Source of the DNA: Patescibacteria group bacterium
GTDB taxonomy: Bacteria; Patescibacteriota; Minisyncoccia; Phycocordibacterales; UBA1550
Assembly: GCA_038062675.1 (NCBI GenBank)
Contig: JBBTWP010000001.1
Coordinates: 122,059-186,058, forward strand
Reading direction: 5' to 3'
DNA: 64,000 bases
The translations under genes were made by a program, and so were the position numbers. The notes under the pieces were generated by a model. The model was not told the DNA's origin and made no database searches. It was given only the letters and a program-made list of their open reading frames with translations. This document shows positions 7,652-63,325 of the stretch, piece after piece (within the stretch, counting starts at the first letter, position 1; each line of letters starts with the position of its first letter).

Positions 7652-7879
7652 CTAGCTAAAAAGGCCTTCGAGATTTCCTTTAATGAACGTCCATATTGGC
7701 GCTAAGTATTCAAACCAAATATTTTTGAGAAATTCCCAAATTGTTTGAAATAGTGGCGATGTAAATATTTTTTCTAAAATTGCACGAAGATCGATATTGT
7801 AATACGCGAGCGCGCCAATGATAACTATGGCGATAAGAATCACTTTAGTAAAGCCTTTATTTGAGAGAGTTTTTTTCAT
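7652..7879 (-). CDS. small membrane protein
   Basis: 75-aa ORF with one TM helix. Confidence 0.35.
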   Translation of the reverse strand: MKKTLSNKGFTKVILIAIVIIGALAYYNIDLRAILEKIFTSPLFQTIWEFLKNIWFEYLAPIWTFIKGNLEGLFS

Positions 7880-34380: not shown

Positions 34381-34389
34381 ATAAACATC

Positions 34390-35691: not shown

Positions 35692-35745
35692 AGTGTAGCT
35701 ATTTTAGTGCCTTTTTACAAGCTCAGATTTCCCGACAACCACCCC

Positions 35746-36984: not shown

Positions 36985-36994
36985 TTTAACATTC

Positions 36995-37873: not shown

Positions 37874-37882
37874 CTAAAAATT

Positions 37883-39067: not shown

Positions 39068-39070
39068 AAT

Positions 39071-42606: not shown

Positions 42607-44894
42607 GGTAATAGTTCATTAAAAATTTTCGATATTTTTTTTGCTATCATACCCCAACCATATCTTTCCTCAATCAATTTGCGCCCACGAGCTCCCATTC
42701 TTCTCTGATCGTCTACATTTTCTAAAATTGCAATAATTACATCGGCTAGCTCCTTCGAGTTTGCCTTCGCTACCACCATACCTGTTTTATGTTGACTAAT
42801 CTCTGGAGCAACTCCAGCAACGTCCGTAGTGACGACAGGTATCCCACTTGCCATTGCTTCAAGTAAAACAATGCCAAATCCTTCAATTTCGATAGATGGA
42901 AGAACAAAGACGTTGGACCGTTGGTAGTATTGTATCAATTCTTCTTGCGTTTTTTTTCCGTGAAATTCAATCACATCTTCTACTCCCATTTTTTTAGATT
43001 CTTCTCGGTATTCATCAACAAGAGCGCCTTCTCCAACAACAATCAATTTTACATTTGGAATTTTTTCTTTTATTTTTGGTATTGCGTGAATTAGGTAATT
43101 AAAACCTTTAAAACGATGGTGTTCATCCAAGATAGAGACAAAAAGAATTGTAGGGTGCTTACTCTTGTTGGTTGATGGTTGAAACATTTCTGTATCAACG
43201 CCATTTGGTAGTGTGGTAATTTTTGACGAAAAACGTTCAAATATATTCCTTGTCTTTTTGAAAGCTGTTTTCCAGTGAGGATTAACTATAATAATTTTAT
43301 CTACAAAATACAAAGTGACCTGAAAGAAGGTATGAAGATAAATCCAAGTGATTATTTTACCAAATAAATCAGGTTTATCCATGTCATTGTGCACCGTCAA
43401 GATTGACCGTTTTCCTTTCAATTTTGCAACAAGAACAGTAATGTCAGATGTCCAAGGAGTTGGCATGTGCGTGTGAGCAATATCAAAATTAGTACGCCAC
43501 AGCACCCAAGGAAGACCTAGGGCGATATTCGTGTTTGCCACTTTAAAACTATAATTGAGCCGTTTTATTTTTGCTCCATTTACGATGCTTTCTTTCTCAA
43601 CAATAGGTTCATTTGCGCAAATGACTGTTACTTCGTGCCCAAGTTTTATAAGTTCTTTAGACAAATAGTACACGTGATTTTCTACTCCGCCGATGTATGG
43701 ATAAAAACGTATAGGAGTTTCCAATATCTTAATTTTATGTGATGTATGCCTATCTATCATTGACAAGAAAAACTCATGACAAACTTTCGCACGAATTCCC
43801 CAACTAAAATCTTTAGTAACTTTAATCACTCCTGCATTGCCAAAACTATGTGCGAGAGCGGGATTTGCTAATAATTCAGAAAGTTTTTGAGCGAGAGCTC
43901 TCCCATCGCAGGGTTCTACCAAAAACCCTGTTTCATTATCAGAAACAAGGTCGGGAACACTACCTACTTTAGTTGAAACAACTGGCAAACCTGACGCCAT
44001 AGCTTCCAAGATTGCCATACTAAAACTATCGTTTGATGTGGGGAGCGCAAAAATATGCGCTTGTTGATATTGTTCCGCAAGTTTTCCACCAAGCAGACGA
44101 CCGGTAAACATCACTACCTTCCCCAACCCAAGCTTTTGCACTCGCTCCTCATATTCACTTTTCATATTTCCGTCACCAACAACAGTAAGGCGTAAATCGG
44201 GAATATTTTTCTGTAGCTTAGCTACCACTTCAATAAGAGTTTGCAGACCTTTGTGCTGTTCCGCCTTGGCAAGTCCCGCAACAAACAAAATACTCGGGTA
44301 CTTTGTTTTTTTCTCGGAGACTGGCTTGAAAAGGTTGGTATCAACTGCAGGAGTAATAGTTACGCTTTTGTGTGCATATTTTTGTAAAAAAATAAGACGT
44401 ACAAAATCGGATGAACAAATAATCTGATCTGCGCGTTTCAAAAGCCATCGCATCGGTCCATGTTCATAAATCCATACCAAAATATCAAATAGAGTTTCCC
44501 CTTTGTGCATACTTCCTGTGTGATACGTGACAACAATAGGGGTCTTTTTTGCGAACATTGCCACAAGGTCGCCAATACCAGGCACTGGTGTGTGTATGTT
44601 TATAATATCAGGATTTTCCGTTTTCAAAATATGACGAATCTTTTTTGTCCACTTGAAACTAAATGGTGTGTTTGAGACTTTTAGTCCGTAAGAAAGTCGG
44701 TACATGGTCAGTCCTTCCACCTCCTCTTTAGCATCTGCGCCATGTCGTTCTCCAGAAGTAACCACTACCACATTCCATTGGTATTCGCGAGAAAGCCGAT
44801 GAGAGATCTCATACGCATAGCGTTCCAGCCCGCCACCATAAGGCGGGAAATATGGAGCAACAACAAGCACTGTTTTCTTTAGTGAGTTACTCAT
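42603..44894 (-). CDS. fused double GT4 glycosyltransferase
   Basis: Two complete GT4 units (FSMAILEAMASGLPVVSTKVG and EGFGIVLLEAMASGIPVVTTDVAG), 763 aa. Confidence 0.8.
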   Translation of the reverse strand: MSNSLKKTVLVVAPYFPPYGGGLERYAYEISHRLSREYQWNVVVVTSGERHGADAKEEVEGLTMYRLSYGLKVSNTPFSFKWTKKIRHILKTENPDIINIHTPVPGIGDLVAMFAKKTPIVVTYHTGSMHKGETLFDILVWIYEHGPMRWLLKRADQIICSSDFVRLIFLQKYAHKSVTITPAVDTNLFKPVSEKKTKYPSILFVAGLAKAEQHKGLQTLIEVVAKLQKNIPDLRLTVVGDGNMKSEYEERVQKLGLGKVVMFTGRLLGGKLAEQYQQAHIFALPTSNDSFSMAILEAMASGLPVVSTKVGSVPDLVSDNETGFLVEPCDGRALAQKLSELLANPALAHSFGNAGVIKVTKDFSWGIRAKVCHEFFLSMIDRHTSHKIKILETPIRFYPYIGGVENHVYYLSKELIKLGHEVTVICANEPIVEKESIVNGAKIKRLNYSFKVANTNIALGLPWVLWRTNFDIAHTHMPTPWTSDITVLVAKLKGKRSILTVHNDMDKPDLFGKIITWIYLHTFFQVTLYFVDKIIIVNPHWKTAFKKTRNIFERFSSKITTLPNGVDTEMFQPSTNKSKHPTILFVSILDEHHRFKGFNYLIHAIPKIKEKIPNVKLIVVGEGALVDEYREESKKMGVEDVIEFHGKKTQEELIQYYQRSNVFVLPSIEIEGFGIVLLEAMASGIPVVTTDVAGVAPEISQHKTGMVVAKANSKELADVIIAILENVDDQRRMGARGRKLIEERYGWGMIAKKISKIFNELLP

Positions 44895-45595
44895 ACAAGT
44901 TTTCCATTAGTGAGATATTCTACACCGGCTTTATTGGCAATATGTTGAAACACACGTTCTAAGCGATTCCAATCTTTTAGTTTTTCAATTTCCCAACTAT
45001 GTCCCCAAATATGAAAAACTCCTCCGTTTTCAGAGACACGCTCAAACATAGCAATGGCAAGATTATCCCAATGGCGATAGTATTGGAAAAATTTAAATGG
45101 ATTGAATCGCACAAAGAGTGCAATCTGCCATGCATCCAGCCAGTGGTCGTAAGTGTGTATGCTGGTCGGCATTTCGTAGAGGTCTTTTATAAAACCAAAA
45201 GAGAATCTGCGCACAGTGCGCGCGAGGACAAACCCTGCTTCCCGTACCACTTGCTTCTGCTTCAAAAGGTATTTTCCGCTCGGGTAACAGAAACTTTTCA
45301 CAGAACCACCCGTCCACTTTTCAAGAAGCTTTTTTGAATCAGAAATTTCGCGCTCAATTTGTTCATCAGTTAACAAGCGCATATCGGGATGCGTCATGGT
45401 GTGTGCGCCTATCTCAAAATCTTTTGACAAGGCCAGGACTTGCACTTGAGAAAGTCTATCTTGAGGGAGAATTTCGTGGCATTCAGGAGCAATATAAAAA
45501 GTGCCCTTGAGATTGTACTTTTTAAGAAGTTGCGCAAGTTTTAGGTCGAGCACGTGTCCATCATCCCAACTGGTTGTTACGATTACTTTTTTCAT
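44891..45595 (-). CDS. polysaccharide deacetylase (NodB-like)
   Basis: TSWDDG...GTFYI and HTMTHP motifs. Confidence 0.6.
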   Translation of the reverse strand: MKKVIVTTSWDDGHVLDLKLAQLLKKYNLKGTFYIAPECHEILPQDRLSQVQVLALSKDFEIGAHTMTHPDMRLLTDEQIEREISDSKKLLEKWTGGSVKSFCYPSGKYLLKQKQVVREAGFVLARTVRRFSFGFIKDLYEMPTSIHTYDHWLDAWQIALFVRFNPFKFFQYYRHWDNLAIAMFERVSENGGVFHIWGHSWEIEKLKDWNRLERVFQHIANKAGVEYLTNGKLV

Positions 45596-45599
45596 AATA

Positions 45600-46730
45600 T
45601 TATTCTAACGCACGTTTATAATTCTGCGCCACGCTTGCCCAATCATACTCCCCAATCCCCTGTTTTGGGTTTAAGGTGTCTATGGTTTTGAATATTTGCA
45701 GGATTTTTTCAGCGACACTTTCTGAGTTTAGTTCTGCAAGCAAACCATTTACTCCCTCGTGTATTAGGTCTTTTGCAGCGTTTCGTTCATGATTGATAGT
45801 CAAGACGGGAAGCCCGCACGCGTTTGCCTCAATCACGATAATACCAAATCCTTCCCGAGTTGAAGGCAATACTAAAATTTTTGAGGATTTCATAAGTCCA
45901 TAGAGTTCGCTTGGATCTTGCAAAAAGCCAAAAAATGAAACATTATTTTCAAGCTCTAGTTCATGGGTAAGTTTCTGAAGTTTTTCTTTTTCTGGTCCCT
46001 CCCCTACCACAAAAAGCGACAAGTTTATATTTTTTTGCACCAGAATCCCTACTGCACGAATCAAAACATCTACATTTTTATTTTGTAACAATCTTCCTGC
46101 AAATATTATATCAGATGCACGAGATGAGGGCGCGCTGTTTTGTATTGCATCAATATCCACCCCATTTGGTACAGTAACAACATTTTTACTTCTTCCAAGA
46201 GTCTCGCGAAGTCCAATCGTGGTGTGGTTTGAAACTGAAATGATAACATCAGGGAGCGTTACTGTTATTTTTTCAACCCAATAACCAACTAGTCCTAATT
46301 TTCCCAAATATTCTCTCCAATACTCTTTTCCCCATACTTCATGCCATGTAGTATACAGGGGTTTTCGTTTTACCCAAGTTACCAAACGGCATGAAAAAAG
46401 TGAGAAATAAGGAAAACCACAACAATCAATGATGTCGAACTTTTCAGACCATAATTTAAGGCAGTTAACACCAAACCATACCGCTTGAAGCATAGAACGG
46501 CGCCCTGAGTCTGTATAAAGTGGCATCGCCTTGCATATGCCATGCAACGTCATCCCCTCAAATTTCATGATTGTGGGACCGTCCCAACACTTCATCCCAT
46601 ACAGGTGTACATCATGTCCTTCTTTTGCAAGCCGTCGACCAATTTCATAAAATCGCTTTTCTGCGCCCCCCTTAATAAAGGGAAAGACCGCATCATAAAC
46701 TAAAGCAATTTTTTTAGATTGGACTGACAT
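45600..46730 (-). CDS. GT4 glycosyltransferase
   Basis: EGFGIIVIEANACGLPVLTINHERNAA. Confidence 0.8.
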   Translation of the reverse strand: MSVQSKKIALVYDAVFPFIKGGAEKRFYEIGRRLAKEGHDVHLYGMKCWDGPTIMKFEGMTLHGICKAMPLYTDSGRRSMLQAVWFGVNCLKLWSEKFDIIDCCGFPYFSLFSCRLVTWVKRKPLYTTWHEVWGKEYWREYLGKLGLVGYWVEKITVTLPDVIISVSNHTTIGLRETLGRSKNVVTVPNGVDIDAIQNSAPSSRASDIIFAGRLLQNKNVDVLIRAVGILVQKNINLSLFVVGEGPEKEKLQKLTHELELENNVSFFGFLQDPSELYGLMKSSKILVLPSTREGFGIIVIEANACGLPVLTINHERNAAKDLIHEGVNGLLAELNSESVAEKILQIFKTIDTLNPKQGIGEYDWASVAQNYKRALE

Positions 46731-46755
46731 GATTCATGAGGGCAAACCGACAGAG

Positions 46756-47457
46756 CTACTGAGTGAGTGTTCCCCTTCGCAAGACAACTCGCTTCATAAA
46801 AAGCTGTGACATATTGCGCACACCATCCCTTACTGTGTTGAGCTTCACTTCGCCAACACGTGGGCGGTATTCGATTGGTGTTTCAGCACATTTGAATCCC
46901 TTTGCATAAGCCTCCACCTTCAATTCCTGAGAAAATGGCATTCCTCCCGATACTACGTCAAGATGCTCCCAGATTGAACGCTTGAAAATCCACATGCCTG
47001 ATTGTGAATCTTTAAACGGCCACCGAAAAAGTGTACGGGTTGTCATACTCAACAACCAATTACCAAAAACATGACTGAAGGTCATTGCTTCAGGATTAAG
47101 ATTGCTCAAGCGGTCAGTGTTAAGAAAATCTAAATTTTTCTCACGGAGCGTCGTGAGAAGTTCTGGTAATGAATCAAATGGGTACGTCATGTCAGCATCC
47201 CCCGTTGCAATAATGTCACCAGTAGCAGCGGCAAAGCCAGCTTTGTAAGCATTTCCATATCCACGCAAAGGTGCGGGAACCACTCTCGCTCCGTGGGCAG
47301 TAGCGATTTCCGCTGTTTTGTCGGTCGAACCATTATCGGCAACAATGATCTCGACCTCGTAGCCCATACTGTTCAATTTTGCAACAGGGACTTGTTTGAT
47401 AACGTCTGCTACCCCCCCTTCCTCGTTTAATGCTGGTATAACAACTGATAATTTCAT
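46756..47457 (-). CDS. GT2 glycosyltransferase (DPM1/GtrB-like)
   Basis: LSVVIPALNEE...VADNGSTD...GDADMTYP. Confidence 0.8.
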   Translation of the reverse strand: MKLSVVIPALNEEGGVADVIKQVPVAKLNSMGYEVEIIVADNGSTDKTAEIATAHGARVVPAPLRGYGNAYKAGFAAATGDIIATGDADMTYPFDSLPELLTTLREKNLDFLNTDRLSNLNPEAMTFSHVFGNWLLSMTTRTLFRWPFKDSQSGMWIFKRSIWEHLDVVSGGMPFSQELKVEAYAKGFKCAETPIEYRPRVGEVKLNTVRDGVRNMSQLFMKRVVLRRGTLTQ

Positions 47458-47466
47458 ATATTTTAT

Positions 47467-47946
47467 TTATTTTTTAATAATCGGCTTCTCGCCTCGTAGT
47501 GCAAAGTGCAATTCTTGCTTTTTGTCGGTGAGCTCTACGTAAAGTGTTTCTTTTTCGGAGGCTGATTTGAATGTATACGACTCGGTGATGGTTTTGTATT
47601 CGTTGTTTTTCACAAATGCGGTACTCTGCGAGACAGTTGTGGTGCCGTAGTCATTTTTAAAATACACAACATACGGATATTCCCTGTCTTTACCTTCCAG
47701 ATTGTGAATGGTGAAAGAAAATGAAATCGTCTCCCCTTTTACAATTTGTTTAGGAAGATCGGTGTGATTTTCGAAGTATAATTCTGTAAATAGCTCGGGT
47801 CTGGGTATGAGCTTGAGTGCGTCCATTTGTCGATAGAGGGCGTCTCGATACACATACGTGGCGTATAGTGTAGCCACAATCAAACAAACGACGAAAATTG
47901 AGATATATTTCTTCATTTCACGCAAAAAACCCGCAACGGGTCTCAT
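47467..47946 (-). CDS. membrane-anchored hypothetical protein
   Basis: N-terminal TM helix plus beta-rich domain. First gene of the minus-strand glycan operon. Confidence 0.4.
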   Translation of the reverse strand: MRPVAGFLREMKKYISIFVVCLIVATLYATYVYRDALYRQMDALKLIPRPELFTELYFENHTDLPKQIVKGETISFSFTIHNLEGKDREYPYVVYFKNDYGTTTVSQSTAFVKNNEYKTITESYTFKSASEKETLYVELTDKKQELHFALRGEKPIIKK

Positions 47947-48230
47947 CTATCTATATATCATATTTTTGCCCAAAAAGCAAGGGCTGGCATGGGGAAAACT
48001 TTGAGAATAGGCACGAAATGCTGGATTTTGTTGGAAAGTCGGTGGTGCAGGGGTGTCATGGTGCCGGAATACAACTTATTGACTTCGCAAAGGGTTTGCA
48101 CTGTATGCCCGATTATGATAAAATGCAAATAGGAGTATGCAATAATAACTTACGTGGTGCTCTGGTGTTCCCACAGAGGATCTGTGACTTAAGCTAGAGA
48201 CTGACACTGCGTGAGACCGCTACTTCTAAC

Positions 48231-48265: not shown

Positions 48266-48910
48266 CTACTTGAAGAATTCTTTGGTACTAAGAATGTTAT
48301 TTTGAATAATTTTATAGCATTCTTCCCCGAGTGGTTTTTTCTCAAGATACCAAGCAAGTGCACCAGAAACCCAATCTGCAATTTGAATATTAGCATTTGC
48401 AGTAGAATCGATCATCTGAATATCAACAAACGTTCCAGGTGAGCAAACAGGGAGAAGCTGGGCTTTCACTGATTCCCTAAAACTATTCCTTGTAAGTCCT
48501 TTAAGGTGTCTATTGTCACAAAAAATATAGAATTCTTTTTCATCTGTTGGTAAATATGTTTTTATAATTTCTGCAATGATTGCCGCGTAGAGCAATCCGC
48601 TTTCCAGCTTGCCTGCATTGTTTCTAAAGTCACTCGGAATGTTTTCCCGTTGTAGATACCCATAACGAATCCTTACATCAAGCTCTGCGATATGCTTAAG
48701 TGTCCGCAATCGTAATGAGTCATCCACGCTCGTAGATGACCACTTTATCTCATTCTGTGTTCGCATTTTTCTTGGAAATCTAGACTGACGCCAAGATTTG
48801 AATGCTTTCTCTGTGCGCCTTTGGTCACCCACAGTGAATGAACCTATTACAAAATATTCTTCATTGTTATGTTTGGTGAATTGACCGCTTTCGTCTAAAA
48901 ATATATACAT
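48266..48910 (-). CDS. DUF3800 family protein
   Basis: MYIFLDESGQF N-terminus and IQIADWVSGAL C-terminal motif. Confidence 0.55.
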   Translation of the reverse strand: MYIFLDESGQFTKHNNEEYFVIGSFTVGDQRRTEKAFKSWRQSRFPRKMRTQNEIKWSSTSVDDSLRLRTLKHIAELDVRIRYGYLQRENIPSDFRNNAGKLESGLLYAAIIAEIIKTYLPTDEKEFYIFCDNRHLKGLTRNSFRESVKAQLLPVCSPGTFVDIQMIDSTANANIQIADWVSGALAWYLEKKPLGEECYKIIQNNILSTKEFFK

Positions 48911-49062: not shown

Positions 49063-49536
49063 ATGTCGCTCAGCCTGAGCCCAAAACAATCAAGGGGCGT
49101 ACTTACTCACATAAAACAACACCGTGGTATTGAACCATTACGAACCATTGACTTATTGCCTCCGGGGTGGTATTTTTCATACAGGTACATTCTGAAGAGG
49201 GGTGACGTCATGGCACACGGTGGCAGACCTGCGGGGTTGAGTAGTGTTGCGGACAAGATACGACGACTTTTAAAAAGTGGCGAAAGCATTTACTACATTA
49301 CCAGCTCTCTCTCACGAAAAGAGGGTTATGGTGCAAATTGCATTGAGCAACACATGCGGGAGTTTGGATTTGAGACGTTGCTCATTAAACCTGCGCCCGT
49401 GAAGCCGTTTTTTGAACTTTACATAACCGATAACCCGGTTTGTTTTGTATCAAAGGACGGAAAGAAGAAGGAGTGCAATGAGTTGTCTGATTTTCTTGAG
49501 CAGGAATCGGATAGGATCAGAATCTTTAAGAAATAA
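49063..49536 (+). CDS. hypothetical protein
   Basis: 157-aa ORF (or 108 aa from the internal Met at about 49210). Confidence 0.3.
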   Translation: MSLSLSPKQSRGVLTHIKQHRGIEPLRTIDLLPPGWYFSYRYILKRGDVMAHGGRPAGLSSVADKIRRLLKSGESIYYITSSLSRKEGYGANCIEQHMREFGFETLLIKPAPVKPFFELYITDNPVCFVSKDGKKKECNELSDFLEQESDRIRIFKK

Positions 49537-49630
49537 AAGGGATTTTTGTGTCACACAACTGGATAGCTACCATAGATACCTGAGCGCTTTGCTATGCGCC
49601 CGGGTATTTTTGTTGGACCCCTGATTCTAG

Positions 49631-49688
49631 TTGACAAGTTTACTTAATTGGTGTATTATATTAGGCAGAGTGTTACATTCTGTAACAC
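49631..49688 (+). promoter_or_regulatory. sigma70-like promoter (TTGACA-17-TATTAT) followed by an 8-bp perfect inverted repeat
   Basis: TTGACA 49631-49636, TATTAT 49654-49659. GTGTTACAttcTGTAACAC at 49670-49688. Confidence 0.5.
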
Positions 49689-49707
49689 AGTAAACAAGAG
49701 GTGTTCT

Positions 49708-50157
49708 ATGAAAAAAACGGCTTTCTTTTTTATGCTCCTGACGTGCTTGGCCATTTTGGCGAGCCACTCCCAAGGTGCGCAGGCAGCTGATGAGCAGAAA
49801 AATGGCGGTGCGGGTGTTGAGTACCCAGTCTGCAATTTGCTAGATACCCCATCCGTTGCAAAACAGCTTGCTCGTGGGGAGCGACCCAATCCCTATTCGC
49901 CATTTTTGATCGAAGGTGGCATCGGAAGCGAGAGGATTGTGTTTTGTATCCACACAAAAGGGGGTGTCGAGATGCACACATCGGTTGCATTTAATGATGC
50001 GGAGTTCATTACGGACGAAACAAAGGCCGTGCCCATGATTGTTTTTTTGTACAAAGGGGAAACAAAAGGCGGAGACCTTCTTGAAAATATCAGAGACCCC
50101 AATGCGATCATTGTGCGGCTTTCCCAAAAGGACCGGAAGTTGGTTCTAAACCCCTAA
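49708..50157 (+). CDS. secreted protein, paralog 1
   Basis: SD AAGAGG. Signal peptide MKKTAFFFMLLTCLAILASHSQGAQA. Family motifs FC, IVF..KG. Confidence 0.5.
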   Translation: MKKTAFFFMLLTCLAILASHSQGAQAADEQKNGGAGVEYPVCNLLDTPSVAKQLARGERPNPYSPFLIEGGIGSERIVFCIHTKGGVEMHTSVAFNDAEFITDETKAVPMIVFLYKGETKGGDLLENIRDPNAIIVRLSQKDRKLVLNP

Positions 50158-50176
50158 TATTGGGGCGTCACAACTC

Positions 50177-50210
50177 AGCCGCTGGATCAGTATGATCTAG
50201 CGGCTTTTTT
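50177..50210 (+). terminator. intrinsic terminator
   Basis: AGCCGCT-GGATCAGTATGATCT-AGCGGCT-T6. Confidence 0.6.
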
Positions 50211-50289
50211 ATGGAAACATGGCAGCGCATCCTACATTTGGTATACTGTATATGGGTTAGTCCACAAGTGTCAGAGAGGAGTAACGTCC

Positions 50290-50733
50290 ATGAAAAATCT
50301 CTTGATCAGCGTGGTTGTCAGTTTTTTGATATTAGTTGCACGAAGCGCACACGGAGGAGCGTCTCCCCCCAAAAGCATGGACGAAATGTTTGTCTTCACG
50401 GAAAGCTACTTGATCTGCGAACGACAGGAACACCACGAAGACGGGACCATTGGGCCATCGGAAGCGTTCATTTGGCTAAGCGAGGGGGTTATTGCCTTTT
50501 GCTGGGGGAAAAATGATAGCGAGGAAGTATCTGTTGTTACCACACCTCTTGTGCACGTAAAGATATTACTCGACAACTGGATTATCGACCCAACAGTCAC
50601 CCTTATCTTTGGTGGTAAAAAAGAAATTCCGTTGCAATGGCTTCAGGGATCGTACCCTTTTCATGCTCCGTTGTCGGGTATCGAGCTCCGCGTACCTATC
50701 GAGTATTTTAATGCACTGCATCGTGCAAAATAG
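50290..50733 (+). CDS. secreted protein, paralog 2
   Basis: Signal peptide, VIAFCWGKND...TLIFGGKKEIPLQWL. Confidence 0.5.
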   Translation: MKNLLISVVVSFLILVARSAHGGASPPKSMDEMFVFTESYLICERQEHHEDGTIGPSEAFIWLSEGVIAFCWGKNDSEEVSVVTTPLVHVKILLDNWIIDPTVTLIFGGKKEIPLQWLQGSYPFHAPLSGIELRVPIEYFNALHRAK

Positions 50734-50749
50734 TTATGTATTGTAAGCC

Positions 50750-50780
50750 CCGCCGGACCAGTATGATCCGGCGGATTTTT
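50750..50780 (+). terminator. intrinsic terminator
   Basis: CCGCCGG-ACCAGTATGATC-CGGCGG-ATTTTTG. Confidence 0.55.
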
Positions 50781-50888
50781 GATTATACGCGGAAAAAAAG
50801 TAGACAAGAAAACATAGTTGCGGTATTATTTCACATAGAATATTGCAGATGCAATAAACAAGAACCTTACGATACGAGGACTTTGATC

Positions 50889-51296
50889 ATGAAAAAGGTG
50901 TTGATGGCAACAGGCATATTGCTAACTGTTTTGGTAGGAGGCGTCAGTGGTGCAGGCATGGAAACAAATGCACTCATTTCTGGGATTCAAGAATACTCAA
51001 TCTGCTCATGGAAGGATTCATCTCCTTTCATTACAGTACAGGGCGAAGAAGTCTCATTTTGCTGGGAGCGACCAGATCTTACCCCTCCGCGATCAATTGT
51101 CACGGCTTCCGCCAAAGACGTAAACTTTGTAATTGATAAAACAAAGGTCATACCAATCGTTAAATTCATATTTGGAGGGAGTCCAGATATTCAACTACTT
51201 TGGGTTACTCGGAAAAATAAGTTTGAAACCTCACCATCAGGAATACAAATCAATATCTCTCCAGAAGATATGGCAGGGATTCAGAGAAAAAAATAG
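50889..51296 (+). CDS. secreted protein, paralog 3
   Basis: Signal peptide MKKVLMATGILLTVLVGGVSGAG, EVSFCWERPD...KFIFGGSPDIQLLWV. Confidence 0.5.
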   Translation: MKKVLMATGILLTVLVGGVSGAGMETNALISGIQEYSICSWKDSSPFITVQGEEVSFCWERPDLTPPRSIVTASAKDVNFVIDKTKVIPIVKFIFGGSPDIQLLWVTRKNKFETSPSGIQINISPEDMAGIQRKK

Positions 51297-51308
51297 TGTT
51301 TACACGAA

Positions 51309-51338
51309 CGCCGAGTCGCAAGACTCGGCGGTTTTTTT
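51309..51338. terminator. bidirectional intrinsic terminator
   Basis: CGCCGAGTC-GCAA-GACTCGGCG-GT7. Serves paralog 3 (+) and uvrC (-). Confidence 0.6.
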
Positions 51339-51341
51339 GTA

Positions 51342-52550
51342 CTAGAGCTTCAGCGGTTTTCGGCGAAGTGTGCGGTGGTAGGCAATGGCAAAACGGTGGG
51401 CTTCGCTGTTGGCGAGGAGGATGGCGCGTTCGTGGGCGACGCGTATTTTGGCGTCGCCCAAAATCTCGCGTGCGCGGTGGTGTTCGTCTTTGACCACACC
51501 CACCACAGGAATGACATTTCCCCACTCTTTGAGGGCGCGTTCTGCGGTGGCGACTTGCGCTTTTCCTCCGTCGACAACAATCAGCGACGGAAGTAACCAT
51601 TCGGGGTGCCCGAAACGGCGTTCGAGTATTTCATGAAGGGAAGCGTTGTCGTCGTTGGTACTGGTGCGTATTTTAAATTTGCGATATGCGTTTTTGTTGG
51701 GCTCGCCGTCTTCAAGAACAACCATCACTCCTACGGTGTTGGTTCCCGAAATGTGTGCGACATCGTACGCCTCGATGCGCATTGTTTTTTCGCTGGTGAT
51801 CTTCTGCTCAAGATTGTGTTTGAGGAGTGCAATGTCTTGGATGTGGGTCAGCGCAAAGATTGTTCGCTTGAGGCGCGCAGCTTCTTCGAATTTGAGCGCT
51901 TTTGCAGAACGTGTCATGTCGCGCTCGAGACTGCGCACGAGTGTTTTCTTTTTACCTTCAAAAAAGAGTTTGATGCGCGTTATTGTTTGTGCGTATTCGG
52001 CAGGAGTGAGTTTGCCTGCACACACAGCAGGGCAAAGGCCAATTTGTGCATTGAAGCAGGGCTTTCCTTGATTCGGCGTGCATTTGTCACGAAAGGGAAA
52101 AATCTTGCGTACGAGGGTGAGTGCTTCGCGGAGCACCGAGCCTTGAGGAAATGGTCCAAACGCATATTTTATTTCCCCATGCTTTGTTTCGAGCTCCCTC
52201 CCTCGCATGGTGATCACGCGCGGAAATGTTTCTTTGGTGATCACGACAAAGTTGAAACTTTTATTATCTTTTTCTTTGGTGTTGTAGGGTGGCTGATGTT
52301 TCTTGATGAGGTGCGCTTCGAGGATGAGCGCTTCAAGGACAGAGTCGGTAATAATAGTTTCAATACTCGTCGCTCCCTCCACCATGCCAACAATGATGGG
52401 CCCGCGCGTGCTCATGAGGTCACGACGAAAATAGCTCGAGACGCGCGAGTGGAGTGAGGTTGCTTTACCAATATACAAAATAGCGCGTTTGGATCCGCGG
52501 AAAATATAAATACCGGGTGCTGCAGGAAGTTTTTTTTCGAGTTTCTTCAT
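51342..52550 (-). CDS. uvrC: excinuclease ABC subunit C, short form lacking the C-terminal (HhH)2 domain
   Basis: GIY-YIG (GIYIFRGSKRAILYIGKA), UVR domain, RNase H-like nuclease domain (EAYDVAHISG). Only 402 aa. Confidence 0.75.
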   Translation of the reverse strand: MKKLEKKLPAAPGIYIFRGSKRAILYIGKATSLHSRVSSYFRRDLMSTRGPIIVGMVEGATSIETIITDSVLEALILEAHLIKKHQPPYNTKEKDNKSFNFVVITKETFPRVITMRGRELETKHGEIKYAFGPFPQGSVLREALTLVRKIFPFRDKCTPNQGKPCFNAQIGLCPAVCAGKLTPAEYAQTITRIKLFFEGKKKTLVRSLERDMTRSAKALKFEEAARLKRTIFALTHIQDIALLKHNLEQKITSEKTMRIEAYDVAHISGTNTVGVMVVLEDGEPNKNAYRKFKIRTSTNDDNASLHEILERRFGHPEWLLPSLIVVDGGKAQVATAERALKEWGNVIPVVGVVKDEHHRAREILGDAKIRVAHERAILLANSEAHRFAIAYHRTLRRKPLKL

Positions 52551-52614
52551 AGGAAATTATCAAGCACAGTTTCCAAGGGTAACCCTTGGAAAAAATGAGG
52601 CTTGTGGCGTAAGG

Positions 52615-55763: not shown

Positions 55764-56483
55764 ATGCGAAGCAAAAAAAGCTTGTGGTGGTTTACCATTA
55801 GTCTTATTGTTCTTTGGGTCACAAATGTCCAAGCCAAAGAATCCACCTGTTCACTCGGTCTTGGTGCTGGATATGTAAAAATATCAACGTCAGTCCTCAA
55901 ACTCACCAACCTTGAAAAGAAATTGGCAAAGAGTGATGATGTGAACTATTCACGGAGTGTCGACAACGAAAGCACGGCGCATGAGTTGTCGATCGACTGT
56001 CTGCTTGGCAACAACTTTGGTATACGGGGATCGTATATCGATGGACTGGAATTTTCAGCGACCAACACCATCACTTCCCCAAAGTTTTTTCTTGAATCAC
56101 CAATCGATGAGATTGACGGAATTACAATCCAATCACTCAAAGCGAAAGTCACAAGAAAAATTAGCGGATCCGCGACCGGAGTGTTTGTTTACTATCGTTT
56201 CGATGTCGTTCCTTCGTTTGCTACAGTTTCTGTGGAAGGAGGTTCGTACTATGTTCGAGCCGAAAGTTACTGGAAAGCGAGTCTGGAAAATGTTGATGGT
56301 GAAAAATATTTCACACTCTTGGGTGAAACTGAATATCAACGAGAATATTTCCCCAGCATTGCATTTAGTGGAAACTTAAATTTCACACCGAGTATGGGGC
56401 TATCCGCACACTATATGCCAGTGCCGGGAAAAACAACGAGGATGCTCTTTTTGACTTTCACGTGGAGATTGTGGAGATTGTGA
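55764..56483 (+). CDS. secreted beta-barrel-like protein (OMP_b-brl-like)
   Basis: Signal peptide, LGLGAGYVK start of beta-strand alternation, aromatic-rich C-terminus. Confidence 0.45.
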   Translation: MRSKKSLWWFTISLIVLWVTNVQAKESTCSLGLGAGYVKISTSVLKLTNLEKKLAKSDDVNYSRSVDNESTAHELSIDCLLGNNFGIRGSYIDGLEFSATNTITSPKFFLESPIDEIDGITIQSLKAKVTRKISGSATGVFVYYRFDVVPSFATVSVEGGSYYVRAESYWKASLENVDGEKYFTLLGETEYQREYFPSIAFSGNLNFTPSMGLSAHYMPVPGKTTRMLFLTFTWRLWRL

Positions 56484-56530
56484 GTACAACAAAAAACCAC
56501 CTCGCATGCTTGTGCGCGGTGGTTTTTCTA

Positions 56531-57058
56531 TTATAACGTCTCCCCTTGTTTTTTATCGCGTAGATCAATCGCCTTTTTCATGAAGTATGGCATCATCAAG
56601 GATAATCCCATCACTACAACAACCATGGTAGAAAAAATGCCGAATGACATTGGTGGAGGGGTATCTCCTAAAGGCATAGGTAGGACACCTAGAATAAGTA
56701 AGATGATATTTATAAATACAAAAATAATTATTGCCAAAAAAGCAACCACGGTAAGCGGTATGTCGAGGCAAATAAAATATTTTATATATTCTCGGAATGA
56801 CATTTTCTTCCACGCGAGCATCGCTGGCGCTAAGAAATATACAGCAATTGAAACAAGGGACAATGTCGCATATGCCGTATCGCCTCCTGAAAACGCAAAC
56901 ATCTCAGAAGAATCCGTAACTAAATCTGTATAGGTCATGTACACACCTAGCAGAGCAGAGAGCACAAAGATAACAGCGTACACAATAAATGAAGTATTCC
57001 CCACTTCCCCGCGCACAACCGCCCGCACCATTTCCATTGGATTGATCAATCTTTTCAT
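56531..57058 (-). CDS. polytopic membrane protein (Yip1-like?)
   Basis: 175 aa with 4-5 TM helices. Confidence 0.35.
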   Translation of the reverse strand: MKRLINPMEMVRAVVRGEVGNTSFIVYAVIFVLSALLGVYMTYTDLVTDSSEMFAFSGGDTAYATLSLVSIAVYFLAPAMLAWKKMSFREYIKYFICLDIPLTVVAFLAIIIFVFINIILLILGVLPMPLGDTPPPMSFGIFSTMVVVVMGLSLMMPYFMKKAIDLRDKKQGETL

Positions 57059-57095
57059 CTGGATAATTTTAATAAAATTTAATTTTAATAATTTT

Positions 57096-57623
57096 CTAAC
57101 TCTCCCGAGGTGAGACCTCGGGAGCTCTGAAATGTTTTAAGACATAAAGATATTTGAAAGTGTAAAATGTGGAAATAGAGCAAAAAACAAGTAAAAGTGA
57201 TGCAAAAAATATTTTGTATATGGTTGACAATATTAAAAATAATTCTTCTTGCCCTAAAACAGTCAAGATTGGAAGGAAAGGAAATGGAATCCAATAAACA
57301 ATTTGATATATAAAAATTAATCCAAAAAACAATTCAATAAAGGTAACTATATTCTTGTTCATAGTAAAATAAAAATTAAACGCATATAAAACTGGTGCTG
57401 TAATCAGAAATAAAAAAATTACAATAAATGCCGTAAAATCAAAAGACCATTGTAGGGGAATTGCCACAAGGAAAAGAACCGTGGACAAAAATAGCAAGTT
57501 TGCAATAGAAAATATTTTTAGAAAAGACGTATTTTTAAATAGATTCATATTTTTAAATCCTAGTACTAATTTTAATATAAAAATTGGCAGGAGACAAGCT
57601 CCTGCCAAAAAGTTAACCACCAA
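57096..57623 (-). CDS. polytopic membrane protein
   Basis: 175 aa with 5-6 TM helices. Overlaps the upstream gene by 11 nt. Confidence 0.35.
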   Translation of the reverse strand: MVVNFLAGACLLPIFILKLVLGFKNMNLFKNTSFLKIFSIANLLFLSTVLFLVAIPLQWSFDFTAFIVIFLFLITAPVLYAFNFYFTMNKNIVTFIELFFGLIFIYQIVYWIPFPFLPILTVLGQEELFLILSTIYKIFFASLLLVFCSISTFYTFKYLYVLKHFRAPEVSPRES

Positions 57624-57954
57624 AAACTGCTACCCATAATCCTGCGGCAGTAACCAGGCTGTTTGGCCAACCTGGACTACTCAGTATTCTAACTACAAGA
57701 GAGGAAACCGGAATGCCGTAAAGAACTGCCGCTGCATACAATACTGGCAAAAACTCCCCCCGCATTTCCCCCGCCATTTCATCCGACATCGGAAGACCGA
57801 TTTTCTCGATTTCGGCGATGGGATTGCTGGCAAGCTCGGTGTTGATGGTGCTTGCGGAAGCAATGGTGGGGACAATTGTCGCGGACAACAGGAACGCGAC
57901 AGCTAAAAACAGTGGTGCAGTAATCTTTCGAACACTCTTCATGCTGACCTCCAA
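57613..57954 (-). CDS. small secreted hydrophobic two-helix protein
   Basis: Signal peptide ...TIVPTIASA, then two hydrophobic helices and a C-terminal GG. Confidence 0.35.
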   Translation of the reverse strand: MEVSMKSVRKITAPLFLAVAFLLSATIVPTIASASTINTELASNPIAEIEKIGLPMSDEMAGEMRGEFLPVLYAAAVLYGIPVSSLVVRILSSPGWPNSLVTAAGLWVAVFGG

Positions 57955-58043
57955 GGTCGTTTGTTGTAATACAAAGAACTACTAGCAACTACGAATCTAT
58001 AGTTACTTGAAGAGTATACACGGAGCAGGTCTCAAAATCAATA

Positions 58044-58120
58044 TTGACAGGGGGGGGTAAAGTAAGGTATGATGGCGGAAGTCTTATGAACCACATCTGT
58101 GGTTCATTTTTGCTCTTTGT
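58044..58120 (+). promoter_or_regulatory. promoter (TTGACA-18-TATGAT) plus a leader hairpin with U-tract (candidate attenuator)
   Basis: TTGACA 58044-58049, TATGAT 58068-58073. ATGAACCACA-tct-GTGGTTCAT at 58086-58107, then TTTTGCTCTTTG, about 20 nt before the ATG at 58139. Confidence 0.45.
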
Positions 58121-58138
58121 TAATCAAAAGGAAAAAAC

Positions 58139-58969
58139 ATGAAAGCAATGTTTGTGGCAATGGGTATGTTGTTTGCGGTGAATTTTGCGTATGCGGAGGA
58201 AGTGGCGAAAGAGGGCGAGGCCGAAGGCCTCGCCCTCGAACAAAAACTTGCTCGTGTGTATGACCTCTATCGTAGAGAAGCCACCGTGTCACTCAAGCCG
58301 AGCGAGATGCAAGCGGGGGTGGGAGTCGTGTACACAACCGGAACTCAAGAAACATTTGGGCTACGGCAAAGTGTGCGTGCGCTTACCACGCAAGTATTTG
58401 CAAGTCGTGGGGTTGGGCATGGGATGGAAATTTCAGTCGCACTCCCCTACTCTGCAACTTCGCGAAGAGTGGAAACGTCAGAGGCAACACTCGCAAAGAG
58501 TTCAGCGTTTGGTGGTGGAGACACAACCATACGCCTGTTGGGTACGCTTCCCACAAAAGAAGTCAGCACAACAGCAATACTTTCTGCAACCCTTCCCACG
58601 GGAAAACATGAGCTCTCACACAACGAGGCACACACTTCTCTGGGAGCAAGCTGGAGTAAAGTTCTACGTCCAGCATTTGTTTCTGGGGGCGCTTCATGGG
58701 AACGAGACTGGCAGAGTGATGTAAATGGTCTGGGCTACAATCTCGGTATGGGATTCTTTCTCAACCACGCACTGTCACTTGGTGGAGAAATAGCGGGTGT
58801 CCTCGTGCTTAATCCTGAAATGGGGGCAGTGCAAGACACGCAAAGCATGGGGCTCAAAGTTGCGTACCAAACCACACCAGATTTTGGTGTGGTGGTATCT
58901 ACTAACATTGGCATAGGAACCAGTGCACCACAATCATCTCTTGGTATGACAACCTATTGGAGGTTTTGA
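58139..58969 (+). CDS. secreted beta-barrel-like protein with OMP-type C-terminus
   Basis: Signal peptide MKAMFVAMGMLFAVNFAYA. Amphipathic beta-strand pattern, C-terminal ...TTYWRF ending in Phe. Confidence 0.5.
   Translation: MKAMFVAMGMLFAVNFAYAEEVAKEGEAEGLALEQKLARVYDLYRREATVSLKPSEMQAGVGVVYTTGTQETFGLRQSVRALTTQVFASRGVGHGMEISVALPYSATSRRVETSEATLAKSSAFGGGDTTIRLLGTLPTKEVSTTAILSATLPTGKHELSHNEAHTSLGASWSKVLRPAFVSGGASWERDWQSDVNGLGYNLGMGFFLNHALSLGGEIAGVLVLNPEMGAVQDTQSMGLKVAYQTTPDFGVVVSTNIGIGTSAPQSSLGMTTYWRF

Positions 58970-61993: not shown

Positions 61994-63325
<1,332 letters not shown>

Follow-up and report, generated by a model that had tools for sequence, protein, structure and literature searches.

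A variable tandem array of genes for small, putatively exported proteins beside uvrC in a Patescibacteria genome

Introduction

The promoter-gene-terminator unit is the classical layout of the phage 'moron', and hairpins in the leaders of ompA and papA of E. coli and aprE of B. subtilis protect the mRNA from 5'-end-dependent decay. Stem-loops at the 5' end are established as mRNA stabilisers (Emory et al. 1992; Bricker & Belasco 1999, as listed in PMC3997798). The locus described here, from the MAG of an uncultured groundwater member of the Patescibacteria (CPR) related to Ca. Yonathbacteria, recalls both systems. Like the ompA, papA and aprE leaders, which stand on genes for abundant exported proteins, the leaders of most genes in its family carry a short hairpin that lies a few nucleotides from where the transcript is predicted to begin and is followed by an unpaired Shine-Dalgarno sequence, with compensatory changes that conserve the structure. 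Unlike them, the family leader keeps its basal 4 bp (GURU/AYAC) and a GA in sequence, which a pure stabiliser would not need, and many family leaders add a conserved AGAACCUU box. As in morons, each gene has its own predicted promoter and factor-independent terminator, and the unit was apparently propagated whole; unlike morons, these units occur without phage context, as tandem paralogues at a conserved chromosomal position.

Two groups of proteins also invite comparison. The paralogous lipoprotein families of Borrelia and the mycoplasmas share with this locus tandem diverged paralogues, signal peptide and lipobox variants, strain-variable content and a lack of enzymatic motifs, but there is no relation in sequence or fold, and the present family shows purifying selection, no evidence of phase or antigenic variation machinery, and a single chromosomal site beside uvrC. 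MliC/PliC, Inh/APRin, lipocalins and OB-fold proteins are similar in size, in a beta-rich build with a terminal helix, in export signal or lipid anchor and in a Cys pair, whereas profile searches give no match to them and Foldseek TM scores against the PDB reach at most 0.29 (OB-fold) and 0.19 (ApoD). We argue, at about even odds (a probability near 0.5), that self-contained expression cassettes stand here in a tandem array of variable content, that they encode small exported proteins of a family restricted to this lineage, that a 5' stem-loop protects the mRNA and that the products are non-enzymatic extracellular binding or structural modules.

Three related genes with predicted export signals

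Three genes lie in tandem in the window, by which we mean the whole 64-kb stretch of DNA that was analysed:

49708..50157, plus strand: gene A (NCBI AAB552_01035), 149 aa, mature protein about 13.4 kDa with 2 Cys; predicted signal peptide ends in AQA, before A
50290..50733, plus strand: gene B (NCBI AAB552_01040), 147 aa, mature protein about 14.1 kDa with 2 Cys; predicted signal peptide ends in AHG, before G
50889..51296, plus strand: gene C (NCBI AAB552_01045), 135 aa, mature protein about 12.5 kDa with 2 Cys; predicted signal peptide ends in VSG, before A

A preliminary description of this DNA had proposed three plus-strand reading frames with cleavable signal peptides, and they are found as described. 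Signal peptides were read straight from the sequence, looking for the Sec/SPase I pattern of a positive n-region and a hydrophobic core 10-17 residues long, with small residues at -3 and -1. All three proteins have an MKK or MKN n-region, a core of 12-17 residues and a small-residue cleavage site, predicted to follow MKKTAFFFMLLTCLAILASHSQGAQA in A (before A), MKNLLISVVVSFLILVARSAHG in B (before G) and MKKVLMATGILLTVLVGGVSG in C (before A). We infer that the products are exported through a Sec/SPase I-type signal. A motif check for a lipobox, sought as [LVI][ASTVIG][GAS]C where the hydrophobic core ends, found none in A, B or C; the LLTC of A was rejected as one, its Cys lying inside the core with Thr at -1. 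Elsewhere in the family, type D proteins carry lipoboxes (LLGAC or FLGAC), as does P0014 (TGGC, within VTGGC), and some members have an uncleaved membrane anchor. A double-glycine leader, considered with a C39 peptidase at 58957-59628, was rejected on anatomy.

BLASTP aligns B with C (E=3e-14, 25% identity) and A with C (E=3e-6) and gives no alignment of A with B; A is placed with the other two by the family profile and by its own orthologues. The paralogy suggested earlier is thus borne out. Judged by sequence, A, B and C are ancient paralogues of one very small family, and each resembles its orthologues in other strains far more than it does the other two. Of the shared motifs first reported, Y-x-[IV]-C and F-C-[WI] are common to all three proteins, but F-G-G...W is confined to B and C. 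Gene A is the most divergent, and its copy in the window has a 7-codon in-frame deletion that removes a conserved Trp kept in orthologues (GKHNWF). This deletion and divergence, the hairpin that C shares with A, its lack in B and the variation of the array between strains (all below) go beyond the preliminary description.

The family comprises about 20 sequences in 5.8 billion proteins searched. One search of the 5.8 billion returned 7 family proteins, a profile search found 11 representatives among 1.84 billion proteins, and a second, word-indexed search with 15 query sequences yielded fewer proteins than the first. Two Cys are invariant across 15 members and are probably joined in a disulfide that stabilises the protein; Gly and Pro residues are likewise conserved in the same 15, and no conserved catalytic-type residues are visible in the family. 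None of the 15 reaches threshold in Pfam, NCBIfam, PHROGs or PADLOC (best E 0.05-0.3, to lipoprotein signal models only), and a sequence search of the PDB found no match. AF2 models are confident for the products of C (pLDDT 82.8, pTM 0.76) and A (pLDDT 80.9), and these two independent models agree on seven strands in the same order plus a C-terminal helix. With a fold match defined as Foldseek E<=0.001 and TM>=0.5, these models gave no significant match and none at E<=0.001; the best TM against the PDB was below 0.3, and the best, non-significant matches were uncharacterised phage proteins in BFVD (E 0.025-0.3, TM 0.42-0.48). The preliminary view that the proteins belong to no recognisable family has thus held through the structure prediction (pLDDT 81-83) and fold search that it had suggested as a check.

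These properties bear on whether the proteins, once exported, inhibit foreign hydrolases, as lysozyme and protease inhibitors such as MliC/PliC, Ivy and Inh/APRin do, and so guard the wall of an attached bacterium. A mature length of 110-125 aa, a beta-rich build, a signal peptide or lipobox, a Cys pair and several diverged paralogues would all suit such inhibitors. We nevertheless consider this unlikely: none of the 15 members matches MliC, PliC, Ivy or Inh in Pfam or NCBIfam even at E<=1, and neither the PDB sequence search nor Foldseek against the PDB returned any of these folds.

Position and composition of the array

The array is flanked as follows:

48266-48910: DUF3800 gene (Pfam E 7e-14), on the flank opposite uvrC
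49210..49536, plus strand: ORF X, an orphan of 108 aa, probably cytoplasmic, between the DUF3800 gene and gene A; context, possibly an associated gene
49576-49607: ORF X's own terminator
51342..52550, minus strand: uvrC (Pfam UvrC_RNaseH_dom, 1e-37), the convergent anchor of the array

The placement between DUF3800 and uvrC agrees with the first account, with ORF X as an additional gene between DUF3800 and A. NCBI annotates ORF X as 157 aa with its start at 49063. It neighbours family genes in three loci, namely this window, L003 (upstream of A) and L009, where a homologue (BLASTP E 2e-16) lies beside them. It has no Pfam or NCBIfam family, a search of 5.8 billion proteins returned only ORF X itself, a resemblance to DsbC_N (E 0.03-0.05) was judged noise, and the 90-aa ORF that precedes the family genes in L006 shows no match to it.

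Wherever a family locus has context, its genes run convergently towards the 3' end of uvrC; the two adjoin each other in L001, L002, L004, L005, L006, L008 and L009. Their content differs: A, B and C occur here, and A, B, a remnant of C and D, or B, C and D, elsewhere. In L001 a deletion of about 400 bp has left only a remnant of gene C, gene D is found in L001 and L002 and missing from this window, and B' in L002 appears frameshifted on a contig with a coverage of only 2x. The array gains and loses members between strains. With uvrC as a syntenic probe, we gathered 160 further loci of relatives (uvrC identity <=73%), and none of these held a family member; the distribution among relatives is patchy. 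The family keeps its position beside uvrC over a uvrC divergence range of 68-94%, and this stability suggests vertical inheritance.

That stability also weighs against an origin from phages or other mobile elements, in which the cassettes would be moron-like units, for example superinfection-exclusion surface lipoproteins, set beside a defence islet and a surface-glycan island. The promoter-gene-terminator layout, the patchy distribution and the best, though weak, fold matches to BFVD phage proteins would fit such an origin, as would the neighbourhood, which holds the DUF3800 gene (a PADLOC candidate, PDC-M04A, E 2e-9), a DUF3800-V RNA and a low-GC glycosyltransferase island. However, no phage, integrase or transposase genes occur at any of the loci, the PHROGs search was empty, the BFVD matches are non-significant, and the GC of the cassette locus (0.45) is that of the core genome and not of the low-GC island. 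We regard this origin as improbable.

Self-contained transcription units

Each gene has a predicted promoter and terminator of its own:

49631..49659, plus strand: promoter of A, TTGACA-17-TATTAT, 11/12 consensus matches; identical in L003
50177..50211, plus strand: terminator T1, 13-bp stem, GTA loop, T6 tail; kept in both L001 and L003
50219..50247, plus strand: promoter of B, weak -35 ATGGCA, extended -10 TGgTATACT; TGnTATACT kept in L001, L003 and the diverged L002
50750..50781, plus strand: terminator T2, stem of 11 bp with a single mismatch (C-A), GTA loop, AT5 tail
50801..50829, plus strand: promoter of C, TAGACA-17-TATTAT; TTGACA in L001 and L002
51309..51338, plus strand: terminator T3, 9-bp stem, GCAA loop, T7 tail; lies directly against the stop codon of uvrC

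The TTGACA-17-TATTAT promoter reported before the first gene is present at 49631, and the proposal that every gene has its own promoter and intrinsic terminator agrees with the sites found, T1-T3 all having stems and T-tracts. Promoter-like sites number 10 in the region against 4.0+/-2.2 in shuffles. Downstream of the stop codon, T1, T2 and T3 each show the GC-rich stem-loop and following U-tract predicted for an intrinsic terminator. The tail of T2 is weaker here, and its stem is perfect, with compensating changes, in L001 and L002; T3 has a compensatory G-C to A-T change in L002. On a narrower delimitation, T1 spans 50177-50205, T2 50750-50774 and T3 51309-51330. Each gene is thus a predicted unit of sigma-70-type promoter, coding sequence and intrinsic terminator, and promoter and 5' leader are inherited together with the gene.

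The palindrome CAGTATGATC does occur in the first two terminators, T1 and T2, but it is not the loop itself, as first described; it consists of the top 3-4 bp of each stem arm and the GTA triloop. A search for it, suggested at the outset, found exactly 2 copies in 64 kb (0.05 expected), each the apical part of a terminator type that recurs in related DNA. T1 and T2 share 28/34 nt. In 1.5 Mb of related DNA, 8 of 11 occurrences of this type (CCGCCGG..CA-loop-TG..CCGGCGG-Tn) follow family genes, distant loci included, which supports and extends the earlier idea that gene and terminator were duplicated as a unit. Concerted evolution of T1 and T2 within the genome was rejected, as T1 groups with its orthologues from other genomes and T2 with its own. 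An Rfam scan of the locus at E<=1 returned nothing but isrK on T1, rejected as sub-threshold (18 bits against a gathering score of 50), and the leader motif had no Rfam match. Integron cassettes, which would be promoterless ORFs with attC sites bearing R''/L''-L'/R' cores (GTTRRRY) and an integrase nearby, were also rejected: each gene has a promoter, the hairpins are trailed by T-tracts and lack GTTRRRY cores, and the scanned part of the window (about 33.8-63.9 kb) holds no integrase-like ORF.

A covarying stem-loop in the leaders

Three elements were located in the leaders:

49670..49688, plus strand: stem-loop of A, GTGTTACA-ttc-TGTAACAC, -8.6 kcal/mol; 32.8 bits with model R1
50841..50856, plus strand: stem-loop of C, TATTGC-agat-GCAATA, in the same register as A; 30.6 bits with R1
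50861..50868, plus strand: AGAACCTT box in the C leader, also in the D, D-like and P0010 leaders and, as AACCTT, in P0009

The perfect 8-bp inverted repeat reported upstream of A is present (GTGTTACAttcTGTAACAC, a single copy in the window), but it begins 10 nt past the -10 box, about 3 nt past the predicted start site, and does not span that site. A perfect 8-bp hairpin arises in just 0.5% of random 38-nt windows; thermodynamically the stem is modest, with a z of -0.46 against shuffles. The L002 counterpart of the C stem-loop is GTATTGC-gggt-GCAATAC, and most family genes elsewhere also have such a stem-loop at the predicted start of the transcript. The leader of B has no significant structure (z +0.45), and the hairpin is missing there and in some D genes.

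Nine family leaders were picked by eye for an alignment, and with statistics inflated by that choice, 95.5% of cells are paired, 5/8 pairs are altered on both sides (12 cells), 0/500 shuffles attain these figures and slid controls pair at 17-57%. In 8/9 of these leaders the stem begins 10 nt after the -10 hexamer, with a pyrimidine then a purine at positions 7 and 8, and from the predicted start site the promoter geometry predicts a 3-nt 5' overhang before the stem; a stabiliser helix would have to start no more than about 4 nt from the end of the transcript. Loops vary from 3 to 8 nt, and G-U pairs are present. In the outer 4 bp, GTRT...AYAC, the sequence itself is kept and not the pairing alone, the preceding GA is likewise conserved, and the inner positions covary. 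Model R1 matches family leaders only, in the window plus 842 kb of related DNA. The AGAACCTT box sits 6-12 nt upstream of the Shine-Dalgarno sequence; it is not enriched in the window, where 2 copies are about what chance would give, so the argument for it is its position in homologous leaders, not its copy number. A predicted pairing of the leader with the start of the coding sequence was dropped, as it is not conserved in orthologues.

The repeat had been described as either operator-like or a 5' UTR structure, and covarying stems, G-U pairs and variable loops favour the second over the first. Were the palindrome upstream of A and C a DNA operator for a dimeric repressor, perhaps ORF X, the genes would be switched and not constitutively stabilised. 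Its overlap with the start-site region is typical of a repressor site, the outer GTRT...AYAC is conserved beyond mere pairing, and ORF X, which lies next to family genes here, in L003 and in L009, has an N-terminus that resembles a helix-turn-helix by eye. However, an operator should have conserved half-sites at a fixed centre-to-centre spacing and no need for mutual complementarity, and in the family hairpins only the outer GTRT/AYAC is conserved. The spacing of the outer arms varies with loop (3-8 nt) and stem length, the inner positions covary, and T-G pairs occur, which are compatible with a helix in RNA but interrupt a palindrome in DNA; ORF X has no recognisable DNA-binding domain and is missing from L004, L005 and L006. 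Because of the variable loop length and the G-U pairs, we read the stem-loop as an RNA 5' element, and we consider an operator improbable.

Selection on the genes

Compared with orthologues, dN/dS is 0.13-0.46 for A, B, C and D (0.21-0.46 for A, 0.13-0.29 for B) versus 0.07-0.13 for the adjacent uvrC, and the dN of family genes is 2-4x that of uvrC. Against L002 dS exceeds 1, yet promoter elements and the Shine-Dalgarno sequence are kept. These values mark A, B and C as genuine genes on which purifying selection acts. That selection is purifying and not positive counts against a strong arms race. Chance or decaying frames, to which the orphan status of the family, the conserved loop lost from A in this window, the remnant of C in L001 and the apparent frameshift of B' in L002 (2x contig) might point, are very improbable given dN/dS well below 1 for all types, Cys, Gly and Pro conserved over 15 members, promoters, Shine-Dalgarno sequences and terminators kept where synonymous sites are saturated, and confident AF2 models.

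Discussion

If the locus is an array of expression cassettes for exported binding or structural modules, each gene would be transcribed as a monocistronic mRNA whose 5'-terminal stem-loop, behind a single-stranded overhang of about 3 nt, would shield it from 5'-end-dependent decay. Together with a strong promoter and a tight terminator, this would make for expression that is both high and insulated. The mature beta-rich domain of about 110 residues would have a non-enzymatic role in binding or structure outside the cell, where it may be free, lipid-anchored or tethered. The most plausible site is the surface of an episymbiotic cell or its interface with the host, and divergence and turnover of the paralogues would then reflect changing partners. 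The grounds for a binding module at the host interface are four: the products are predicted to be exported, they show no catalytic motifs, their anchoring varies across the family, and genes are gained and lost.

A bolder proposal, to which we give a low probability, is that the fold is unprecedented, that the proteins form a diversifying surface repertoire for host attachment or manipulation, and that the family-specific leader, with its GA-GURU...AYAC stem-loop set at a constant distance from the promoter and its AGAACCUU box, is a dedicated cis-regulatory RNA read by a factor that co-ordinates expression of this repertoire, and not a mere passive stabiliser.

The Patescibacteria make up a large share of bacterial diversity and mostly live attached to other microbes, and to our knowledge almost nothing is known of the exported proteins that mediate this lifestyle. 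Orphan secreted families are common in CPR genomes, and expectation is not yet overturned by these findings. The locus is a compact test case, offering an orphan exported domain with confident models, presence/absence variants between near-identical strains and a covarying leader, which is, as far as we know, among the few motifs in the phylum that are candidate cis-regulatory RNAs and go with one particular gene family. If the leader is an mRNA stabiliser, the classical 5' stem-loop strategy would operate in CPR bacteria and the leader would serve as a portable element for expression; should the proteins bind to the surfaces of hosts, they would be candidate determinants of host specificity.

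Three predicted exported members of an orphan protein family

Three plus-strand ORFs, each with a signal peptide, had been described in the 49.6–51.35-kb interval, and all three were found there. They belong to a 'Patescibacteria group bacterium' MAG (265-kb contig) and are annotated by NCBI as hypothetical proteins with the same starts.

49708–50157, plus strand: A, 149 aa (AAB552_01035, hypothetical protein)
50290–50733, plus strand: B, 147 aa (AAB552_01040, hypothetical protein)
50889–51296, plus strand: C, 135 aa (AAB552_01045, hypothetical protein)

Read directly from the sequence, each protein begins with a typical Sec signal, in which an n-region rich in Lys and a hydrophobic core are followed by small residues at the cleavage site (predicted at AQA↓A in A, AHG↓G in B and VSG↓A in C). 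The mature proteins are 12.5–14.1 kDa, mildly acidic and contain exactly two cysteines apiece. A lipoprotein assignment of A, B and C was considered and rejected.

The proposed paralogy was borne out to different degrees. B and C are clear paralogues (25% identity, BLASTP E = 3e-14), the relation of A to C is weak (E = 3e-6) and BLASTP gave no alignment between A and B, so that A was placed by its orthologues and by the family HMM, which scores all three proteins at E = 1e-40 to 1e-45. In two orthologues of A, P0006 and P0007, a G-K-H-N-W-F loop aligns with B and C at their L-Q/L-W motif; an in-frame deletion of seven codons has removed this Trp loop from A in the window. Scanning the 64-kb window with the family HMM revealed no further member. 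A profile search of 5.8 billion proteins returned seven family proteins, HMMER, run exhaustively on 1.84 billion cluster representatives, gave 11 matches at E ≤ 1e-3, and six-frame HMM scans of all retrieved loci yielded 21 ORFs in ten loci, counting the window. The absence of a recognisable family noted earlier held for Pfam, NCBIfam, PHROGs, PADLOC and a profile search of all PDB sequences, none of which gave a match.

In a 15-member alignment, the two cysteines alone were invariant and one glycine was nearly so; recurrent motifs were Y-x-[VI]-C-[ND], R-P-x-x-Y-[ST]-P-F, [VI]-x-F-C, P-x-V, F-x-G, W and G-[IV]-x-[IV]-R-[ILV]-S-x-x-D. No His/Asp/Ser-type catalytic constellation was conserved in this alignment, which argues for a structural or binding domain. 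A rival reading makes the family proteins hydrolase inhibitors; the family could be assigned neither to any curated protein family nor to a known PDB fold. AlphaFold2 models of mature C (7-sequence alignment; pLDDT 82.8, pTM 0.76) and mature A (15-sequence alignment; pLDDT 80.9, pTM 0.76) agree in predicting about seven beta strands in the same succession and a C-terminal helix. Foldseek searches of the PDB gave at best E = 0.37 with TM below 0.3 for the C model, and E = 0.08 with TM 0.28 for the A model (POT1/Teb1 OB folds).

Each gene has its own promoter-like site and terminator

As the preliminary description had claimed, a promoter-like site precedes each of the three genes and an intrinsic terminator follows every stop codon.

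Before A: TTGACA-17-TATTAT, 11/12 consensus
Before B: ATGGCA-17-TATACT, with TG extension
Before C: TAGACA-17-TATTAT, 10/12 consensus
50177–50211: T1, terminator behind A
50750–50781: T2, terminator behind B
51309–51338: T3, terminator behind C

Synonymous sites are saturated between the window and the related locus L002 (dS above 1); against this background, both promoter hexamers (−35 and −10), the TG extension and the Shine-Dalgarno sequences are conserved. T1 and T2 share 28 of 34 nt, including the 10-mer CAGTATGATC (two copies in the window, 0.05 expected). This 10-mer had been noted before and placed in the terminator loop; its sharing is real, but it makes up the apical stem, GATCA/TGATC, together with a GTA triloop. 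Terminators of the type CCGCCGG-AYCA-loop-TGRT-CCGGCGG-Tn also lie behind A-like, B, D, D-like, P0010 and P0011 genes of the family in distant loci, and a loose pattern for the type has 11 matches in 1.5 Mb of related DNA, eight of them behind family genes. T1 orthologues cluster together across genomes, and T2 orthologues likewise, which leads us to reject recent gene conversion and points to old shared ancestry with constraint. The common terminator type and this grouping support the earlier suggestion that duplication took in each gene together with its terminator.

A family-specific leader stem-loop

The inverted repeat reported in front of A is present and unique in the window.

49670–49688, plus strand: A leader palindrome, GTGTTACA-ttc-TGTAACAC

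Taken alone it is weak evidence, because the window contains about 25 distinct perfect hairpins of at least 8 bp, mostly terminators (33 stem/loop listings, which count several loci twice), and because its folding energy, −8.6 kcal/mol (z −0.46), does not stand out. Perfect hairpins of 8 bp and 6 bp were found in 0.5% and 3.3%, respectively, of random 38-nt windows. The promoters of A and C are both followed by a perfect hairpin at equal offset, and in eight of nine family leaders the stem starts exactly 10 nt past the −10 hexamer. Y-R-G-A precedes the stem and places the predicted start site at the purine R, which would leave an overhang of 3 nt. Among the pairs, the outer ones keep their sequence (GURU/AYAC) and the inner ones vary freely.

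Leader stems of family genes in the window and related loci
Window, A: GTGTTACA/TGTAACAC
L001, A: GTGTTAC/GTAACAC
L009, A-like: GTATCAC/GTGATAC
Window, C: TATTGC/GCAATA
L002, C: GTATTGC/GCAATAC
L004, P0009: GTGTCGCA/TGCGACAC
L008 and L009: shorter stem versions

In an unsupervised MAFFT alignment of nine leaders, chosen after hairpins had been seen in them, 95.5% of cells pair, and both sides have changed in five of the eight pairs (12 cells). Neither value was reached in any of 500 shuffles, and sliding the partner columns lowered pairing to 17–57%.

The preliminary description had called the repeat an operator-like or 5′ UTR structure. In a rival reading as an operator, the palindrome would be bound by a regulator encoded by X, the orphan ORF between the DUF3800 gene and A, whose N-terminus (GGRPAGLSSVADKIRRLLKSGESIYYI) looks helix-turn-helix-like by eye. 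The leader loops vary in length (3–8 nt) and the stems include two G-U pairs, which fits an RNA helix and is hard to reconcile with a fixed-spacing dimer operator. With the covariation, these features led us to reject the operator class and to retain the 5′ UTR alternative: the palindrome is best read as a family-specific 5′ leader stem-loop.

With a covariance model built from the stem-loop, A scored 32.8 bits and C 30.6 bits, the next match in the window reaching 14.9 bits; scores above 25 bits in 842 kb of related loci came from family leaders only, the model's own training sequences among them. The best match outside family genes (L006 8410–8439, minus strand, just 5′ of uvrC; 18.9 bits, E about 1.7) is probably due to chance. 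No convincing hairpin was found in the leaders of B or of the L001 and L002 D genes. A (G)AGAACCTT box lies 6–12 nt 5′ of the Shine-Dalgarno sequence in the leaders of C, D, D-like, P0010 and, partly, P0009.

A separate unit at 58044–58969 (plus strand) has a strong promoter-like site, TTGACA-18-TATGAT, followed 12 nt on by a 9-bp hairpin (ATGAACCAC-atct-GTGGTTCAT, 58086–58107), a T-run and an unannotated exported-protein gene (276 aa, signal peptide MKAMFVAMGMLFAVNFAYA...). This hairpin, unlike the family leaders in sequence, could be a stabiliser or an attenuator.

A variable array anchored at uvrC

In every locus with enough context (L001, L002, L004/L005, L006, L008 and L009; UvrC 68–94% identical to that of the window), family genes are convergent with uvrC and abut its 3′ end. 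The other flank differs, being RNase R in L004, YqeY-GGDEF-RmuC in L006 and X/DUF3800 in the window. No family member was found in 160 further uvrC loci of relatives (47–73% identity), and the distribution is patchy, since L006, at 68% UvrC identity, holds two. YqeY directly follows uvrC in L012, and in L010, from the nearest Yonathbacteria species representative, a 122-aa signal-peptide protein (7301–7669, minus strand), unrelated and without a match to the family HMM, lies between the two. Genes for small exported proteins may thus land repeatedly in the uvrC 3′ flank.

Family arrays, each ending at uvrC
Window: X, A, B, C
L001: A, B, remnant of C, D
L002: B (apparently frameshifted; 2x-coverage contig), C, D
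L009: A-like, D-like, X homologue
L008: P0010, D-like
L006: P0014 (lipobox), P0011
L004/L005: single gene, P0009

Proteins of the D type, which is not in the window, combine a canonical lipobox (LLGAC) with a linker some 45 residues long. In L001, about 400 bp have been deleted, which fuses the −10 region of the C promoter to the last ~25 codons of C and leaves T3 intact; the junction shows ATCA-type microhomology. The T-tract of T3 runs directly into the uvrC stop codon in the window, as does that of the D terminator in L001, which would fit loss (or gain) of D through similar terminator tails. The B-type gene of L002 (88–535) has its signal-peptide ATG at 88, out of frame with the mature-domain ORF (131–535); the gene is either a true frameshift pseudogene or the product of an assembly error, the contig being at 2x coverage.

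The units resemble moron-like autonomous cassettes in function, not by homology. An actual moron or phage origin is a further rival, and Foldseek of the C model against BFVD led to uncharacterised phage proteins, at best with E = 0.025 and TM 0.48. An integron-cassette assignment of the array was rejected. That the ORFs are non-functional is countered by their dN/dS against orthologues (Nei-Gojobori): 0.21–0.46 for A, 0.13–0.29 for B and 0.16 for the D type, with 0.07–0.13 for the adjoining uvrC in the same genome pairs, a non-synonymous rate 2–4 times that of uvrC. A, B and C are therefore real genes under purifying selection.

Genomic setting

By a uvrC-based probe, the organism is near Ca. 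Yonathbacteria (Parcubacteria/Paceibacteria; best species representatives at 66–73% UvrC identity).

34000–47500: low-GC surface-polysaccharide island, ~13 kb (GC 0.36–0.42, about 0.46 otherwise)
48131–48227, plus strand: DUF3800-V RNA (Rfam RF02964, 72.3 bits, E = 2e-14)
48266–48910, minus strand: DUF3800 gene, its product also matching PADLOC candidate defence model PDC-M04A (E = 2e-9)
49210–49536, plus strand: X, with its own terminator at 49576–49607

The island, which ends near the triplet, is probably a horizontally acquired or variable region. It encodes a GH39/GH5-like hydrolase, a flippase, an FkbM methyltransferase, a polysaccharide deacetylase, a GT2, four GT4 glycosyltransferases (one a 763-aa double GT4), an 806-aa DUF2206 membrane protein and a DUF1616-like small membrane protein. 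The DUF3800-V RNA directly adjoins the DUF3800 gene, a clean RNA-gene association in a Patescibacteria genome. NCBI gives X as 157 aa (49063–49536); a 108-aa version is backed by other callers and by the L009 homologue. X is conserved beside family genes in three loci (window, L009 1306–1674 and L003 91–249), standing on different sides of the array, and no homologue beyond the clade was found in 5.8 billion proteins.

To the right of the triplet lie uvrC and uvrA, with uvrB 7 kb beyond. At 55764–59628, four ORFs without any Pfam family and a stand-alone C39 peptidase-domain protein (58957–59628, E = 2e-17) are inserted between uvrA and uvrB. A near-perfect palindrome of 17 nt, CCAAGGGTAACCCTTGG, has two copies in the window (52573–52589 and 62599–62615; 0.09 expected): one copy, in the 64-nt uvrA-uvrC spacer just 5′ of uvrC, extends to 10-bp arms (TTTCCAAGGGtaaCCCTTGGAAA), and the other is within the tgt ORF.

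Proposed mechanism

The locus is a uvrC-anchored variable array of autonomous cassettes that encode an exported family with a conserved Cys pair and carry a covarying leader helix. We give the anatomical part of the mechanism a probability of about 85%; the functional part is tentative and, on balance, doubtful. Each family gene would give a monocistronic mRNA, and the near-terminal stem-loop may shield these mRNAs from 5′-end-dependent decay. In other bacteria, 5′ stem-loops such as ompA-type stabilisers protect mRNAs (Emory et al. 1992; Bricker & Belasco 1999, as cited in PMC3997798); stabiliser hairpins of this kind are analogues of the leader in function, not by homology. The outcome would be abundant exported proteins in which the Cys pair probably forms a disulfide.

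Depending on the family member, the domain is free, lipid-anchored, set on a long linker or placed behind an apparently uncleaved membrane anchor, and this variable anchoring, with the lack of catalytic signatures, suggests a non-enzymatic binding or structural module at the cell surface. Paralogous surface-protein arrays of host-dependent bacteria are functional, non-homologous analogues. The family and the leader motif appear not to have been described before; CPR genomes commonly encode orphan secreted families, however, and the components of this locus act in familiar ways. For an episymbiotic CPR bacterium, the site of such a module would plausibly be the host interface.
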